From an uncultured Bacilli bacterium (lineage in GTDB: Bacteria > Bacillota_I > Bacilli_A > RF39 > UBA660): a stretch of DNA of 64,000 nucleotides. The position numbers and the translations under genes are program-made. Location: contig CAKPDF010000001.1 of assembly GCA_934148535.1 (NCBI GenBank), positions 127,361-191,360 of the forward strand. The letters are read 5' to 3'. Below, piece after piece: positions 47,391 to 52,457 of the stretch; within the stretch, counting starts at the first letter, position 1, and every line of letters starts with the position of its first letter. Below the pieces are notes generated by a model that saw nothing but the letters and a program-made list of their open reading frames with translations, did no database searches and was not told the DNA's origin.

Positions 47391-48947
47391 GTGATATTTA
47401 TGAAGAAAAGTTTTGTTAAAATGAATGTTGATGACAAAGAATTATCTTTAGGTAACTTCTGCAGGTTGCTTAAGAGCTTGGCTGTTAATAAAAGTGCAGC
47501 TTTGCAAGTGGAGGTATTTTCTTGTTTATTTGATGTTGATAGTATTCAAGATACTACTGTTAATAATTATTGTATAGGACTTCGTTCTATTGGTGATGAA
47601 TATAAGCAAAAGTATTTAATATTAAAGAAGAAATATAATAAAGATAAATTTATTATGATTAATATTTGCCTTAGGATTGTTTCTATCTTGGATGGTAATT
47701 TATATTTTAATATTAGTAATAAGGATGGATATTTATTAATCAATTCTAATAAAAAAATTAAGGAATTTTGTTTAAAGTTATATAATATTGCTAAAAATGA
47801 TGCTAGTGTATCTTTGGAAGTTAGTGGTAGTATTTATTCTAAAATATGTGATGGTAACTTATATGAGGCTTTAGTTTATATATTGTTTTATATTATTTTA
47901 GAAAAAAAACAGCCTGTATATGAAGAGGATAAAAAGAAAGATGTGATTGAAAATTTATTAGCACAGTCAAAAATTTCTTCTTCTGATTTAGAGGACTATC
48001 TTAAATTAAAGTTTTGTGAGGGAAGTAATTATTATTTATCTTTGAAAAAACTTGCTAATAATGAAAATGCTTATGCTTGTTTTGAATTAGGATGTTTAGA
48101 ATATGAGGGTAATATTTTTGGAATACCTAGGTATGATGTTGCCTATTCTTATTTTTTAAAAGCTACAAAAATGGATCATCCATCGTCATATTATTATATT
48201 GGAAGAATGTATTTTAATGGAAATATTGGTTCAAGAAAAGATGAAGAGAAGAAAATGGCTTTTGATTATTTTAAGAGAGCTAGTGAACTTGGATGTATAA
48301 GTGCTTTTAACTCTTTGGGACTTTTTTATCTTAAGGGAATATATCCTGTAGAGAAAGATATTGATACTGCTATTAAATATTTTAAAAAAGCTAGTGGTAA
48401 TAATTATGTATATGCTTTTAATAATTTGGGATTAATAGAAGAAAAAAGAAATAATTATTCTATGGCGTTTGAATATTTTAAAAAGAGTGCTGATTTAGGA
48501 GAGAGTTGGGCTTGTAATAGAGTTGGTGAATACTATAGAAAAGGTGTATATGTTGATAAAAACATGGTAGATGCTTTTAATTATTACAATAAGGGATTAG
48601 ATGTTCCTAAGTTATATCTATGTTTTTATAATTTTTATAATTTGGCTAGATATTATTATTTAGAGGGATGTTTAGATATTGTAATTAGTCCTGATAAGAA
48701 TAAGGCTATGGAATATTTGATGGTTGCTAGTGATAATGGTATTATAGAAGCTAATATATTATTATTTTATTACTATATTGAATGTTATTTAAAAAATAAA
48801 GATTCTTCAAATTTAGCTTATGTTTATGAATATAAGAAAAAAATTGAAACTGATTCTCAATATAATAGTACTATTAAAAGAGATATAGAAAATGCATTAA
48901 AAAAAATATCAACTCATAATGATATTGATATTTCCTCTATTATTTAG
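47391..48947 (+). CDS. Sel1-repeat (TPR-like) protein
   Basis: C-terminal half contains >=6 tandem ~36-aa Sel1-like repeats (A..YF.KA...G...A.NNLG..Y..G.GV..D...A..YY.K...). Confidence 0.6.
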   Translation: MIFMKKSFVKMNVDDKELSLGNFCRLLKSLAVNKSAALQVEVFSCLFDVDSIQDTTVNNYCIGLRSIGDEYKQKYLILKKKYNKDKFIMINICLRIVSILDGNLYFNISNKDGYLLINSNKKIKEFCLKLYNIAKNDASVSLEVSGSIYSKICDGNLYEALVYILFYIILEKKQPVYEEDKKKDVIENLLAQSKISSSDLEDYLKLKFCEGSNYYLSLKKLANNENAYACFELGCLEYEGNIFGIPRYDVAYSYFLKATKMDHPSSYYYIGRMYFNGNIGSRKDEEKKMAFDYFKRASELGCISAFNSLGLFYLKGIYPVEKDIDTAIKYFKKASGNNYVYAFNNLGLIEEKRNNYSMAFEYFKKSADLGESWACNRVGEYYRKGVYVDKNMVDAFNYYNKGLDVPKLYLCFYNFYNLARYYYLEGCLDIVISPDKNKAMEYLMVASDNGIIEANILLFYYYIECYLKNKDSSNLAYVYEYKKKIETDSQYNSTIKRDIENALKKISTHNDIDISSII

Positions 48948-49381
48948 TTATATTTAAAGTTTGTTCTCATTTCTCTTTCTGTGTCTCTTTTCTTAATAGT
49001 TTCTCTCTTGTCATAATTTTTCTTACCTTTGCAAAGACCTAATAGTACTTTTGCTTTACTATTTTTAAAATATATTTTTAATGGTATTAAAGTATATCCT
49101 TCTAATGTTATTTTATTTGATAATTTCATTATTTCTTTTTTATGCATTAATAGTTTTCTGGTTCTATCTTCTTCATGATTAAAAATATTGCCTTTTTCAT
49201 ACGCTGATATGTGAGTATTTAATAAAAATAGTTCATTATTTCTTATGATTGCATAACTATCTTTTATATTGGCTTTACCTTCTCTTATAGATTTTATTTC
49301 AGTGCCTTTTAATACTATTCCAACTTCATATTCTTCTTCTATTTCATAATCATATCTTGCTTTTCTATTTAATATTTCCAT
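48944..49381 (-). CDS. smpB: SsrA-binding protein
   Basis: 145 aa; conserved SmpB core (NRKARYDYEI...GIVLKGTEIKS...LLMHK). Confidence 0.9.
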   Translation of the reverse strand: MEILNRKARYDYEIEEEYEVGIVLKGTEIKSIREGKANIKDSYAIIRNNELFLLNTHISAYEKGNIFNHEEDRTRKLLMHKKEIMKLSNKITLEGYTLIPLKIYFKNSKAKVLLGLCKGKKNYDKRETIKKRDTEREMRTNFKYN

Positions 49382-49410
49382 AGGACATTTTTCCTTTCTT
49401 TTATATGTTA

Positions 49411-49472
49411 ATTATATTATTATAATTTTATTTTGTCAATTTTTTGACAAAATGTGGAAGTTGTGCTATTAT
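49411..49472. promoter_or_regulatory. Back-to-back divergent sigma-A promoters inside a perfect palindrome. The minus-strand promoter is TTGACA(49434-49439)-17-TATAAT(49411-49416) for smpB. The plus-strand promoter is TTGACA(49444-49449)-17-TATTAT(49467-49472) for sRNA copy 1
   Basis: ttttgtcaa tttt ttgacaaaa (49431-49452) is a perfect 9-bp-arm palindrome supplying both -35 hexamers. Confidence 0.55.
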
Positions 49473-49603
49473 TAGTATGTAAGCAAGGAAACTTGCATAT
49501 ATTAAAAAAGGAACATTCGATTTTGCAAGTGAATGTCATCCTTAATTTTGTTTGGTGACACTCAGTTTAATGAGTGTCTTTTTATTATGTTTATTAGTAT
49601 TTT
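49465..49603 (+). repeat. Direct repeat copy A (~139 bp, ~90% identical to 49833-49975)
   Basis: Alignment by eye of gctattattagtatg...gacactcagtttaatgagtgtctttttattatgtttattagtattt. Confidence 0.8.
49479..49585 (+). ncRNA. Candidate small RNA, copy 1 (~105 nt), from promoter to intrinsic terminator; convergent with and directly abutting the 3' end of the 30-aa peptide ORF
   Basis: Own promoter; internal alternative stems (TGTAAG/CTTGCA versus ACTTGCA/TGCAAGT); terminator GACACTCA-gtttaa-TGAGTGTC + T5 (49557-49583); no ORF. Confidence 0.45.
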
Positions 49604-49686
49604 ATTACTAATATCAATAATATGGTAAGTAATAAAATTAGACATAGTAATTTTAATAATTTTAAAATAAATGTTTTTATCTTCAT
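49594..49686 (-). CDS. 30-aa hydrophobic peptide MKIKTFILKLLKLLCLILLLTILLILVIKY; type I toxin-like small membrane peptide
   Basis: Manual translation. Strong SD GGAGGTGG 5 nt upstream of the ATG. The SD is pairable with upstream CCTCCA (hairpin CCTCCA-9nt-TGGAGG at 49695-49715). Extended -10 promoter TGATATAAT at 49745-49753. Confidence 0.45.
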   Translation of the reverse strand: MKIKTFILKLLKLLCLILLLTILLILVIKY

Positions 49687-49744
49687 ACTTACCACCTCCA
49701 TTCTATTGTTGGAGGATGACACTCACATCAAATGTTCCTAGATA

Positions 49745-49777
49745 ATTATATCAGATATTTCTATTTTATTTTTACAA
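49745..49777 (-). promoter_or_regulatory. Extended -10 promoter (TGATATAAT) for the 30-aa peptide mRNA; weak -35 (TTGTAA at a 21-nt spacing)
   Basis: Revcomp of attatatca at 49745-49753; gives a ~55-nt structured 5'UTR. Confidence 0.4.
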
Positions 49778-49832
49778 TTTACTAACAGTATTCAAATTCA
49801 CTAGCAGTTACTTGATTTGTTATAACATTTAT

Positions 49833-49975
49833 GCTATTATTAGTATGCAAGCAAGGAAACTTGCATATATTAAAAAATGGAACATTCAATTTTGTAAGTG
49901 AATGTCATCCTCAATGTTTTTTTGGTTTTGACACTCAGTTTAATGAGTGTCTTTTTATTATGTTTATTAGTATTT
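49833..49975 (+). repeat. Direct repeat copy B (~143 bp)
   Basis: See copy A; differs by ~10 substitutions and a short T-tract insertion. Confidence 0.8.
49847..49957 (+). ncRNA. Candidate small RNA, copy 2 (~110 nt): promoter TTGATT(49812-49817)-17-TATTAT(49835-49840), terminator 49930-49956
   Basis: Same architecture as copy 1. Stem substitutions preserve pairing through G-U wobbles (TGCAAG/CTTGCA perfect, ACTTGCA/TGTAAGT wobble). Confidence 0.45.
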
Positions 49976-49996
49976 CTTAATTAGAAAAATAAGCAT

Positions 49997-51211
49997 TTAA
50001 TTGGTGCTTATTTCTTTTACTTTTATATTACTATTTAGAGATGTTATAACATTTTTATATTTTTCATATACTTCTTGATAATTATTTAAGTACGAATTAT
50101 CTATTTTAGAAAATGGCACTATTAAGAAATCTTTATATTCATTTGTATAGTACATATATAGTAATTCATTTTCTAAATTTTTAATAGTTATTTTATTTGT
50201 TTTTAAATCTTTTTCTATTTCTAGAGAGGTCATCAATCCCACTCTATTATCCATATTTACTACTTCATGTGCAGATGCAAAATTACCTAGCGAATATATT
50301 ACTAAAGTATTATTTATATAATCTATTGGCTCTATAACATGGGGATGAGTTCCTATTATTATGTCTACGCCATTATCACTTAAGAATTTTGCAGCATCTT
50401 TTTGATAGGCATTTGGCATATTTTGATATTCTATTCCCCAATGCATTGCTACAAGTAATACATCTACTTTATCTCTTACTCTTTTTATATCCTCTAATAC
50501 TTGTTGTTTATAATTTTGATACTCGATATCTTTTTCTGGATTATTTCCGTTCATAGGCCATATATTTACTAGATAATTTTCATCTTCTGGTACGTTAATT
50601 TCGTTAGTTCCATAAGTATAATTTAGCATTGTATATGTTATTCCATTAGATTCTCTTATATCTATTTTATTTCTTTCTTCTTGACTGGAATAAGAACCTA
50701 CTGCTAAAACATTTTCTTTAGAATTCCAATAATTTCTTGAATTTAATACTGCTTGCTTCCCTCTATCTAGAGTATGATTTGTAGCAAGAGATACTAAATT
50801 AAATCCTGCGTCTATCATTGCATCTGCTACTTCATATGGTGAGTTGAAGGCAGGATATGATGATAATCCTATTTCACTTCCTCCTATGATAGTTTCTTGG
50901 TTGTAGTATGCTATATCGTAATTTGAGACTATACTTTTAATCATTTTATACATTGGTTTAAAGTCATAACTTTCATAATTTGCATTTCTATTTGCTTCTT
51001 CATAAATACTTGAATGTATTAGATTATCTCCTACCATTATTAGAGATGTTGAAGTTGTATTTTTTATATTTTCTTTTTCTATATTTTTATTTTCTTTTTC
51101 TTGTTCTGTTTTGGGAATTAATAATAAAATTATACTTGTTAATAGTATTAATATTAAAATAGATATGATTAAAGACTTAAGTTTTTTAAGTCTTTTGTCT
51201 TTCTTATTCAT
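49997..51211 (-). CDS. CapA/PgsA-family (PGA_cap) metallophosphatase-like membrane-anchored protein, paralog 2
   Basis: N-terminal TM, conserved MHWG.EY and GTHPHV motifs; ~60% identical to the upstream paralog. Confidence 0.75.
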   Translation of the reverse strand: MNKKDKRLKKLKSLIISILILILLTSIILLLIPKTEQEKENKNIEKENIKNTTSTSLIMVGDNLIHSSIYEEANRNANYESYDFKPMYKMIKSIVSNYDIAYYNQETIIGGSEIGLSSYPAFNSPYEVADAMIDAGFNLVSLATNHTLDRGKQAVLNSRNYWNSKENVLAVGSYSSQEERNKIDIRESNGITYTMLNYTYGTNEINVPEDENYLVNIWPMNGNNPEKDIEYQNYKQQVLEDIKRVRDKVDVLLVAMHWGIEYQNMPNAYQKDAAKFLSDNGVDIIIGTHPHVIEPIDYINNTLVIYSLGNFASAHEVVNMDNRVGLMTSLEIEKDLKTNKITIKNLENELLYMYYTNEYKDFLIVPFSKIDNSYLNNYQEVYEKYKNVITSLNSNIKVKEISTN

Positions 51212-52457
51212 ACGCTGGTACTACTTTCATGGTTTCATCATATTTCTGAACTACTGCTTTATATTTTTCATATACTGTTTTATATGATGGTAAATATGTT
51301 TTTATTGCTTCATTAGAAAATGGAACAACTTTAAAATTTCTAAATCCACTATAGTAAGTATATATTAATTCATTTGAAACATCATCTATTTTAATGGTTT
51401 TATCTTTTCCTTTTTCTGTTTTAGTTATTTTAAAACTAGTCATTAGTCCTGTAGTACATTTATAATCAGTACAAGTTGATTGATTTTGATATTGAGCTGA
51501 TATTAGGTTTCCTAATGAATATATTACTAGAGTATTATCTATCCAAGTAACTGGTTGGATTACATGAGGATGAGTTCCTATTATTACATCTACTCCATTA
51601 TCTGCTAAAAATTTTGCCATATCTTTTTCATATTCTGTAGGTTCATGGGTGTATTCTACTCCCCAATGCATTGCTACAAATAATACATCTACTTTATCTC
51701 TTACTCTTTTTATATCTTCTAATACTGTTTTTTTATAATCTTGATATTCTGTATCTTTTTCAGGATCATTTATATCTAAATCTGTAGGCCATACATTTAC
51801 TAAGTATTCTTTCCCTTCTGGTACTTTAATACCATTAGTACCATAGGTATAATTTAACATTGTATATGTTATTCCATTAGATTCTCTTATATCTACTTTA
51901 TTTCTTTCTTCTTCACTGGAATAAGAACCTACTGCTAAAACATTTTCTTTAGAATTCCAATATTCTCTTGAATTTAATACAGCTTTACTTCCTGAATCAA
52001 TTGTATGGTTTGTGGCAAGGGATACTAGATTAAATCCTAAGTCTATCATAGTATCTCCTACTTCATATGGTGAATTGAATGTTGGATAGTCACTTAATCC
52101 GATTTCAGATCCTCCTAAAATTGTTTCTTGGTTATAATATTCTATATCATAATTTGATACTATTGGTTTTAATAATTCATACATTGGTGAGAAGTCATAT
52201 CCGTCATAATTAGCATTTCTATGGGCTTCATTGTAAAGACTTGAATGTATTAAGTTATCTCCTGCTGTTATTACAGAGGTTGTATATACTTTTTCTTTAA
52301 CTTCCTCTTTTGTACCATTATTATTAGATTCTGTTTTTACTTCTTTTTTTAATATTTGTTTACTACAATAAAATATTACTAAAATGAATAATATTACTAA
52401 TGATAGTGCTATAAAAATATTTCCTAGTTTTAATTTTCTTTTTTTCTTTCTATTCAT
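51204..52457 (-). CDS. CapA/PgsA-family (PGA_cap) metallophosphatase-like membrane-anchored protein, paralog 1
   Basis: Same motifs as paralog 2; tandem duplication with 8-nt overlap. Confidence 0.75.
   Translation of the reverse strand: MNRKKKRKLKLGNIFIALSLVILFILVIFYCSKQILKKEVKTESNNNGTKEEVKEKVYTTSVITAGDNLIHSSLYNEAHRNANYDGYDFSPMYELLKPIVSNYDIEYYNQETILGGSEIGLSDYPTFNSPYEVGDTMIDLGFNLVSLATNHTIDSGSKAVLNSREYWNSKENVLAVGSYSSEEERNKVDIRESNGITYTMLNYTYGTNGIKVPEGKEYLVNVWPTDLDINDPEKDTEYQDYKKTVLEDIKRVRDKVDVLFVAMHWGVEYTHEPTEYEKDMAKFLADNGVDVIIGTHPHVIQPVTWIDNTLVIYSLGNLISAQYQNQSTCTDYKCTTGLMTSFKITKTEKGKDKTIKIDDVSNELIYTYYSGFRNFKVVPFSNEAIKTYLPSYKTVYEKYKAVVQKYDETMKVVPAYE

Follow-up and report, generated by a model that had tools for sequence, protein, structure and literature searches.

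As of 2014, 3'-end overlap was common to all known type I toxin-antitoxin (TA) systems of Gram-positive bacteria (PMC4147584). In two of them, txpA/RatA and bsrG/SR4 of Bacillus subtilis, the overlap spans ~75 and ~120 nucleotides (nt), respectively, the antitoxin RNAs have no complementarity to the ribosome binding site (RBS) and act through RNase III, and the RBS of bsrG lies in a stem (PMC4147584). The par system of pAD1 (Fst/RNA I-RNA II), of which SprA1 is a homolog, combines convergent transcription, a short antitoxin RNA and a 3' overlap outside the coding region with a hydrophobic toxin of ~30 amino acids (aa) (PMC4147584). A different logic operates in hok/Sok of plasmid R1, where the full-length mRNA is closed by a helix between its 5' and 3' untranslated regions (UTRs; tac/fbi), so that the RBS is sequestered and the mRNA is translationally inactive (PMC9841398). 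Here, we analyzed a 64,000-nt stretch of DNA from an uncultured Bacilli bacterium (contig CAKPDF010000001.1; hereafter, the window), in which two copies of a small RNA (sRNA) gene on the plus strand flank a 30-codon gene on the minus strand. We consider it likely that this locus is a type I TA module accompanied by an orphan antitoxin, and that it represents a family that has not been described before and is common among uncultured gut Bacilli with low GC content.

As in txpA/RatA and bsrG/SR4, the genes in the window are convergent, their predicted transcripts overlapping by ~75 to 80 nt at the 3' ends, and the 5' domain of the sRNA has no complementarity to the mRNA. The peptides are unrelated, however (59 and 38 aa in B. 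subtilis, with no family match for ours), the window sRNA has no RatA-type match in Rfam, and, whereas txpA and bsrG reside on prophage or skin elements, window-type loci are chromosomal and stand beside housekeeping genes. The locus shares with par of pAD1 its convergent transcription, short antitoxin RNA, noncoding 3' overlap and 30-aa hydrophobic peptide. Yet par uses one shared terminator where the window has two hairpins, one taken as the terminator for each direction, and the DRa/DRb repeats of par make the 5' ends complementary and block ribosome binding, whereas the leader of our candidate toxin mRNA resembles the sRNA in the same sense, as an inverted repeat. Unlike members of the Fst/Ldr family, the candidate toxin has no match to the Fst Pfam family, and we found no DRa/DRb-type complementarity beyond chance. 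Two hallmarks of type I systems are nonetheless present, namely, a gene for a small (<60 aa) hydrophobic protein that is really coding and, judging by gene geometry, an sRNA with its own promoter and terminator that is complementary to the toxin mRNA. Toxicity of the peptide and its neutralization by the sRNA are what this sequence arrangement suggests.

The plus-strand units are two direct copies of one sequence (49461 to 49602 and 49829 to 49975, ~92% identical), which align as three collinear blocks, D1, D3, and D2, with 96%, 88%, and 100% identity and a spacing of 368 to 373 nt; a 23-mer of the unit occurs exactly twice in the window, compared to 0 occurrences expected. Each unit appears to be a stand-alone sRNA gene of ~105 to 110 nt with a strong promoter of the sigma-70 type and its own terminator, with the following features.

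49444–49472, plus strand: promoter of sRNA copy 1, TTGACA, 17-nt spacer and TG-extended TATTAT, with 11 of 12 consensus matches
49477–49583, plus strand: sRNA copy 1, the candidate antitoxin RNA, ~105 nt, covariance model score of 104.5 bits, its start placed at A49477 or G49479 by promoter spacing
49483–49496, plus strand: stem-loop 1 (SL1) of copy 1, GCAAG-GAAA-CUUGC, 5 bp with a GNRA loop, including the strand CUUGC that the first-pass annotation of this DNA took to be shared by two stems
49504–49509, plus strand: A-run immediately 5' of SL2 in copy 1, nearly invariant in three homolog alignments
49510–49541, plus strand: SL2 of copy 1, made of GGAACAUUC, a loop with UGCAAGU (49524–49530) and GAAUGUCAUCC, supported by the fold, by covariation and by the predicted closing helix of the toxin mRNA
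49557–49583, plus strand: SL3 of copy 1, an intrinsic terminator with an 8-bp stem and a T-run, from the terminator scan and covariation
49812–49840, plus strand: promoter of sRNA copy 2, TTGATT, 17-nt spacer and TG-extended TATTAT
49845–49956, plus strand: sRNA copy 2, the putative orphan antitoxin RNA, covariance model score of 106.8 bits
49851–49864, 49879–49910 and 49930–49951, plus strand: SL1, SL2 and SL3 of copy 2, from the fold

The minimum-energy folds of both copies consist of three hairpins (z-scores of −4.2 for copy 1 and −3.0 for copy 2), with an SL1 pairing probability of 0.99 in the partition function of copy 1 and, in both copies, a 12-nt SL2 loop that contains UGYAAGU. The two sRNA terminators are the only terminator-like sites in the scanned kilobase, against 0.1 expected. 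Two further roles for these sequences were considered and rejected: an attenuator, in which the SL2 3' arm would pair with the SL3 5' arm as an antiterminator, because no gene lies downstream on that strand, and a short open reading frame (ORF) within the sRNA (UUG CAA GUG..., 11 codons), which we judged noncoding and which is broken in copy 2 (UUG UAA).

Homologs of the sRNA exist outside this locus, in numerous genomes and metagenomes. When one genome per species was scanned with the pattern AAGCAAGGAAACTTGCAT, 55 loci matched, and 30 of these hold 32 clear copies with promoter, SL1, A-run, SL2, and terminator, in which the copy 1-type promoter and its distance to the RNA start are kept; about 23 of the 55 matches to this 18-mer pattern were discarded as unrelated coding or leader sequences (Nitrososphaerota, Bacteroidota, and others). 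The homologs come from records titled uncultured "Bacilli bacterium," "Tenericutes," and "Erysipelotrichaceae," Clostridium sp. CAG:302, and CAG:451, and, also in view of these titles, we take the carrier genomes to be RF39-like Bacilli. Since the first pattern fixed SL1, a metagenome scan was anchored only on the SL2 3' arm and SL3; it returned at least 120 contigs, and where contig names were informative, they mostly pointed to gut metagenomes. The module arrangement is present on at least 150 contigs from genomes and metagenomes together. With a covariance model derived from the genome set, we recovered 114 sRNA copies among the loci listed, 112 of them distinct. The invariant 5' domain of the first set (UGUAAGCAAGGAAACUUGCAUAAAAUAAAAAAG), considered as a trans-acting seed or protein-binding site, was rejected as an ascertainment artifact of the search pattern, as SL1 varies and covaries.

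These homologs support the three-hairpin fold. SL2 and SL3 show compensatory changes already in the genome set, and across the 112 distinct sequences 96.8% of the cells of SL1, SL2, and SL3 are paired, compared to a shuffled mean of 92.4% (0 of 500 shuffles as high) and to 26 to 50% in slid controls. Changes on both sides occur in 16 of the 19 pairs, including all five of SL1 and all eight of SL3, with SL1 taking the forms GCAAG/CUUGC, AUGAAG/CUUCAU, GUGAG/CUCAC, ACAAG/CUUGU, GUAAG/CUUAC, and GCAAA/UUUGC. A MAFFT alignment (A3) mis-registers these SL1 variants, and pair counts were therefore made on a model-guided alignment (A4); the same compensations are visible by eye in the raw metagenome sequences. 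SL1, whose sequence is free to change while pairing is kept, is probably a protective or stabilizing 5' hairpin. An alternative in which intergenic DNA was duplicated in tandem neutrally, with no functional RNA, would be in keeping with the AT-rich intergenic stretch (window G+C, 25 to 32%) and with one copy having lost its neighboring gene, but it is effectively refuted, and left with virtually no probability, by more than 110 distinct homologs with conserved promoter, hairpins, terminator, and compensatory changes. In this respect, our results bear out the first-pass annotation, which had argued from the two copies for a functional structured RNA rather than neutral repeat DNA.

The family does not coincide with a described one in the collections searched. 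Rfam gave no gathering-score match in the window except tRNAs and only spurious matches at E ≤ 10 in 49380 to 50030, and none of its antitoxin and sRNA families (RatA, fstAT, Sok, and others) had a covariance model match in the window. The locus had no blastn match in plasmid and phage collections, and scans of IMG/VR with both DNA patterns gave none or chance matches only (46 to 47% GC, 21 to 24 bits). Separately, the 18-mer hairpin AAGCAAGGAAACUUGCAU occurs in GC-richer mRNA leaders that precede ORFs, close to the leader start, at L001:4892, L004:1585, and L006:1124, in metagenome-assembled genomes of Clostridia, and at L019:4268, with UUUGUAAGU ~70 nt downstream of it in L001, L004, and L006; scoring 22 to 24 bits by the covariance model, these 18-mers are probably chance matches or an unrelated leader element.

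The first-pass annotation had gone further and proposed a switch between two conformations, in which CUUGCA alternates between a 5' UGYAAG (stem A) and the UGYAAGU of the SL2 loop (stem B), with substitutions between the copies that preserve both helices. The repeat is real, and both helices can be drawn in both copies. In copy 1, the strands UGUAAG (49478 to 49483), CUUGCA (49492 to 49497), and UGCAAGU (49524 to 49530) give a stem A with a G·U pair (UGUAAG/CUUGCA) and a perfect stem B (ACUUGCA/UGCAAGU), and in copy 2 the strands UGCAAG (49846 to 49851), CUUGCA (49860 to 49865), and UGUAAGU (49893 to 49899) give a perfect stem A (UGCAAG/CUUGCA) and a G·U pair in stem B (ACUUGCA/UGUAAGU). The T-to-C change behind this exchange stands, but at 49480 versus 49848 and not at 49846, and the C-to-T change is at 49526 versus 49895. 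The seemingly structure-preserving pattern, however, is no more than what chance would give: each change is a transition between pyrimidines, both face the same G (49495 in copy 1, 49863 in copy 2), and since any exchange of C and U opposite G keeps a pair, they are one-sided and not compensatory. Homologs with a canonical ACUUGCA arm carry U/C (29 sequences), U/G (8), U/U (7), or C/U (1) at the two positions; the lone C/U is copy 2 of the window, and its 5' C is a singleton among the 112 distinct homologs, so that no reciprocal flip pattern emerges. Differences between C and U opposite G in two paralogs should thus not be read as covariation.

Covariation across the homologs backs SL1, SL2, and SL3 and not stems A and B, being absent for stem B and marginal for stem A. 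On the model-guided alignment of 112 sequences, stem B has 84.8% of its cells paired, compared to a shuffled mean of 85.4% (475 of 500 shuffles as high), and stem A has 82.0%, compared to 80.6% (2 of 500), a margin within the range that relatedness alone can produce. In favor of the two-stem switch, most members of one subfamily have a loop heptamer that could pair with the SL1 3' arm (84.8% versus 16 to 58% in slid controls). Yet there are homologs whose substitutions break both stems, the very finding that the first-pass annotation named as a refutation of its proposal: where SL1 reads AUGAAG/CUUCAU, GUGAG/CUCAC, or GUAAG/CUUAC, the SL2 loop is still UGCAAGU or CGCAAGU and no UGYAAG 5' arm exists. 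More broadly, the loop stays UGCAAGU, UGUAAGU, or CGCAAGU across most SL1 variants without a compensating change, many homologs have no UGYAAG 5' arm, and in 15 of the 32 genome homologs, which belong to other subfamilies, the SL2 loop is unrelated and the stem B partner absent. Energy models point the same way. Forcing stem B costs +8.4 to +8.5 kcal/mol in both copies, with a pairing probability of ~0, because SL1 and SL2 must both melt, and stem B is by these predictions no plausible conformer of the free RNA. Stem A has a probability of 0.006 in copy 1; in copy 2, and only if the RNA starts at A49845, the U-to-C change turns it into the minimum-energy 5' hairpin (7 bp, 0.72 versus 0.27 for SL1). 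Stem A is a register-shifted form of the same 5' hairpin, which the tandem GYAAG-CAAG makes possible. Of the traits of switch RNAs, two exclusive helices each kept by compensatory change are not seen, and no gene lies downstream on the same strand, both copies ending in a terminator that faces minus-strand genes. Taken together, we regard a switch built on CUUGCA as highly improbable.

The partner of sRNA copy 1 on the opposite strand is the candidate toxin gene, with the following features.

49594–49686, minus strand: candidate toxin gene, MKIKTFILKLLKLLCLILLLTILLILVIKY, 30 codons plus stop, ATG at 49686–49684
49745–49753, minus strand: predicted toxin promoter, extended −10 element TGaTATAAT, ~6–7 nt upstream of AGGAAC, with a presumed start
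49687–49739, minus strand: toxin mRNA leader, with an SL2-like segment (49739–49713) and CCUCCA (49715–49710), which pairs with the RBS
49503–49593, minus strand: toxin mRNA 3' UTR, placed by gene geometry and fully complementary to sRNA copy 1 from SL2 through SL3

The RBS of this gene, GGAGG, lies 8 nt upstream of the ORF (49699 to 49695, minus strand), and its 30-aa peptide has a basic-hydrophobic-basic layout. Among the 125 sRNA copies with at least 230 nt of flank, 89 are adjoined by a convergent ORF of 22 to 45 aa that is hydrophobic and has an RBS; in the genome loci, the homologous ORF is convergent and ~100 to 200 nt from the sRNA start, and a −10-like element recurs in the homologs at an equal distance from AGGAA. 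The peptide consensus is MK-x-K-T-F-I-x-K-V-L-R-L-I-x-I-I-L-L-L-x-T-L-L-V-L-x-I-K-K. In 40 distinct 30-codon sequences, differences at the three codon positions number 5323, 3965, and 7878, with an excess at the third position, and 62% of the single-base codon differences are synonymous, compared to 25% expected, a pattern by which the 30-codon ORF is a real gene under purifying selection. Searches of Pfam and NCBIfam with eight representative peptides found no toxin family at E ≤ 10, including Fst and Hok/Gef, and a profile search of the PDB and a search of PHROGs found nothing; one peptide variant is present on 921 contigs, where it is labeled "hypothetical protein."

Purifying selection would equally be expected of a small membrane protein under antisense control but without toxicity, such as a peptide with a regulatory or structural role whose expression the sRNA tunes. 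The chromosomal housekeeping neighborhoods of these loci (smpB, efp, rluB, and ferredoxin) and the absence of the peptide from the plasmid, phage, and viral collections searched are in line with such a role, and toxicity is for its part deduced from architecture. On the other side stand features that match type I toxins better than ordinary small membrane proteins, such as the near-consensus antisense promoter, the tandem arrays of two or three modules, and the frequent loss of the peptide gene with the sRNA kept, as in copy 2 of the window. On balance, we find a nontoxic peptide unlikely and favor the TA module.

The toxin mRNA and sRNA copy 1 are perfectly antisense over their predicted 3'-terminal overlap. 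On the mRNA, a UUUUUU stretch that is complementary to the sRNA's nearly invariant A-run comes after the SL2 complement, and we infer that the SL2 reverse complement and this U-run form the toxin mRNA terminator. Further, the leader resembles the sRNA in the same sense: segment 49739 to 49713 has the SL2-like form GGAACAUUUGAU..GUGAGUGUCAUCC and can thereby pair with the SL2 complement at the 3' end of its own mRNA. For the mRNA stretch between 49745 and 49503, the predicted fold (minimum free energy, −76.2 kcal/mol; z = −10.1) contains a helix of ~26 bp between leader and 3' end and pairs the RBS and AUG in local helices. Of 18 loci folded, which represent four subfamilies with differing stem sequences, 17 have such a predicted 5'-3' helix, of 14 to 30 bp. 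Duplexes between leader and 3' end average −35 kcal/mol for cognate pairs, −34 kcal/mol within subfamilies, and −19 kcal/mol between subfamilies. In 66 distinct leader/3'-end pairs we counted 1639 Watson-Crick pairs, 135 G·U pairs, and 11 single mismatches, the last number being understated, and to that extent a point against us, since duplex folding optimizes pairing. With so few mismatches and so many G·U pairs, the differences between leader and sRNA are almost only ones that preserve leader/3'-end pairing, which points to selection on the 5'-3' helix beyond mere shared ancestry of the two sequences. A second, local lock on initiation would be provided by pairing of the start-codon region UGGUAAGUAUGAAGAU with a complementary segment inside the same ORF, AUUUUAUUACUUACCA (49679 to 49694 and 49623 to 49638, minus strand), if the fold is as modeled. 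We also observed that the SL2 and SL3 arms resemble each other within every subfamily (e.g., GAAUGUC/GAGUGUC and GUUGAGUAC/AUUGAGUAC) and change together across subfamilies; because of this likeness, the toxin leader could also pair with the SL3 complement in a second register.

A predicted 5'-3' helix with a sequestered RBS and with covariation is what the locus has in common with hok, a likeness that hinges on where the 3' end of the mRNA is placed. Sok, however, pairs with the 5' region of the 3'-processed mRNA, whereas the window sRNA is antisense to the lock's own 3' partner, and, unlike the proteobacterial hok, the window has no mok-like leader ORF and encodes an unrelated peptide with no Hok/Gef Pfam match. 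The unusual feature of the locus is that the antisense RNA, in targeting the 3' partner of the lock within the mRNA itself, is a mimic of the leader. To our knowledge, no 5'-3' closing helix has been reported for txpA/RatA or bsrG/SR4, and we know of no type I system in which a hok-like lock is combined with a RatA-like 3' antisense RNA.

We propose that the toxin mRNA would be made in, or would relax into, a closed untranslatable form, as in hok. The sRNA, presumably abundant and read from a near-consensus promoter, could then dock on the exposed SL3 complement of the toxin 3' UTR and zip through the SL2 complement, giving a duplex of ~75 to 80 bp that may be cut by RNase III, after which degradation would proceed from the 3' end, in the manner of RatA and SR4. 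The displaced leader would refold into a hairpin and a CCUCCA/UGGAGG helix, in which the RBS would still be sequestered and translation would stay off. The mimicry and covariation of SL2 and leader are plain from the sequences. Whether they amount to competition is a more tentative matter: the antitoxin may compete with the leader for the 3'-terminal lock, so that the mRNA would switch among three states (closed, bound by the sRNA, and open for translation), but we hold this particular outcome, and the competition itself, to be a possibility on which we would not rely.

Several observations weigh against this interpretation. The label "toxin" derives from architecture only, and about 29% of the sRNAs (36 of 125) have no detectable partner ORF. 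The covariance model alignment leans toward the model structure, that is, SL1 to SL3. The 3' end of the toxin mRNA is placed from sequence features, and an end located elsewhere would mean that the closing helix is not as drawn; a simple terminator scan called no minus-strand terminator, because the SL2 complement has a 12-nt loop and a bulged stem. By binding the 3' partner, the sRNA would open the closing helix and could in principle activate translation rather than silence it. Finally, one locus of the 18, L027 (6874 to 6994, minus strand), has no predicted 5'-3' helix. L027 is itself an apparent recombinant, with an SL2/SL3 of the GUUGAGUAC type and a toxin ORF of the MKIKTFI... type that has a GUGAGUAUC leader.

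The part of the sRNA outside the overlap offers another point of comparison. In SprA1/SprA1AS of Staphylococcus aureus, likewise with 3'-overlapping genes, the membrane-active peptide is 30 aa long, and the sRNA has a nonoverlapping 5' domain through which it is reported to act in trans on the RBS and start codon. Unlike SprA1AS, the window sRNA has no such complementarity in its 5' domain, SL1, whose sequence is free while the hairpin is kept. In 20 loci, duplexes of the sRNA 5' 36 nt with the toxin leader plus ORF had the same energies as shuffled controls, and par- or SprA1-like pairing of the 5' domain was therefore rejected as no better than shuffles. The same results bear on the idea that these sRNAs act mainly in trans on other mRNAs, through their GCAAG motifs or the C/U-rich SL2 3' arm, with the overlap with the ORF being secondary. 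Orphan copies with intact promoters do persist (copy 2 of the window, and the 36 of 125 without a partner), and the sRNA carries three GYAAG motifs and a CCUC-type sequence like an anti-RBS element. But SL2 and SL3 are conserved, covary, and track the cognate toxin subfamily, SL1 is free in sequence while paired, unlike a seed, and the 5' domain is no more complementary to the cognate mRNA than shuffles are; nor did a target besides the toxin mRNA emerge, although no search was aimed at one. We therefore consider a mainly trans-acting role very unlikely and retain the cis-encoded antitoxin as the preferred reading.

Copy 2 of the sRNA has no complete toxin gene facing it in the window; what is left is a single short feature.

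49967–49975, minus strand: remnant of a second toxin gene, its last two codons and stop (AAA TAC TAA), in block D2, which is 100% identical up to 49975

Module 2 is homologous to module 1 only as far as 49975, where the remnant abuts the terminator of a PGA_cap gene. By this sequence evidence, copy 2 is an orphan antitoxin whose toxin was lost by deletion. A close relative on a metagenome contig (L118) has smpB followed by three complete modules, each with an sRNA that faces a toxin gene; its modules 1 and 2 are near-identical to those of the window, including the distinctive spacer of window copy 2. In the L118 sRNA that corresponds to copy 2, the 5' position is U and the loop position is C, and C49848 and T49895 are thus derived in the orphan copy. 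The changes in copy 2 fit drift tolerated by pairing opposite G, rather than selection for two helices. The copy 2 sRNA can, by its sequence, still pair with the toxin mRNA of module 1. Three-copy tandem arrays of the sRNA occur in L118 (1 to 1050) and also in L146, L153, and L157, and in L118 two specificity types, which differ in SL2 loop and toxin, are adjacent to each other near smpB. Elsewhere, decayed sRNA copies with degenerate SL1 and promoter and apparently no toxin gene (L024:1956-2073 and L035:5121-5236) resemble pseudogenized antitoxins.

In the window, the locus is flanked by smpB (48944 to 49381, minus strand), two PGA_cap paralogs, and the genes for RNase R, a Sel1-repeat protein, and an SDF-family symporter. 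The PGA_cap (CapA-like) paralogs are in tandem (49997 to 51211 and 51204 to 52457, minus strand) with an 8-nt overlap, and both have an N-terminal basic-hydrophobic segment. In low-GC Gram-positive genomes, rnr, smpB, and ssrA usually stay together; here, the TA modules and the two PGA_cap genes stand between rnr and smpB, and neither ARAGORN nor Rfam detected a transfer-messenger RNA gene across the 64-kb window, although smpB is present.

If confirmed, these loci would constitute a new and abundant type I TA family in uncultured gut Bacilli with small genomes, a group that is poorly studied. Type I systems are hard to detect by homology, and here natural covariation data are at hand for both the antitoxin fold and the fold-back lock of the toxin mRNA, which provide ready designs for mutational tests. 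The covariance model, together with a peptide profile, would allow both genes to be annotated in the carrier genomes. Moreover, the geometry of the locus, with an antisense RNA directed at the 3' partner of the lock, could reveal how 3'-overlapping antitoxins control translation at a distance.

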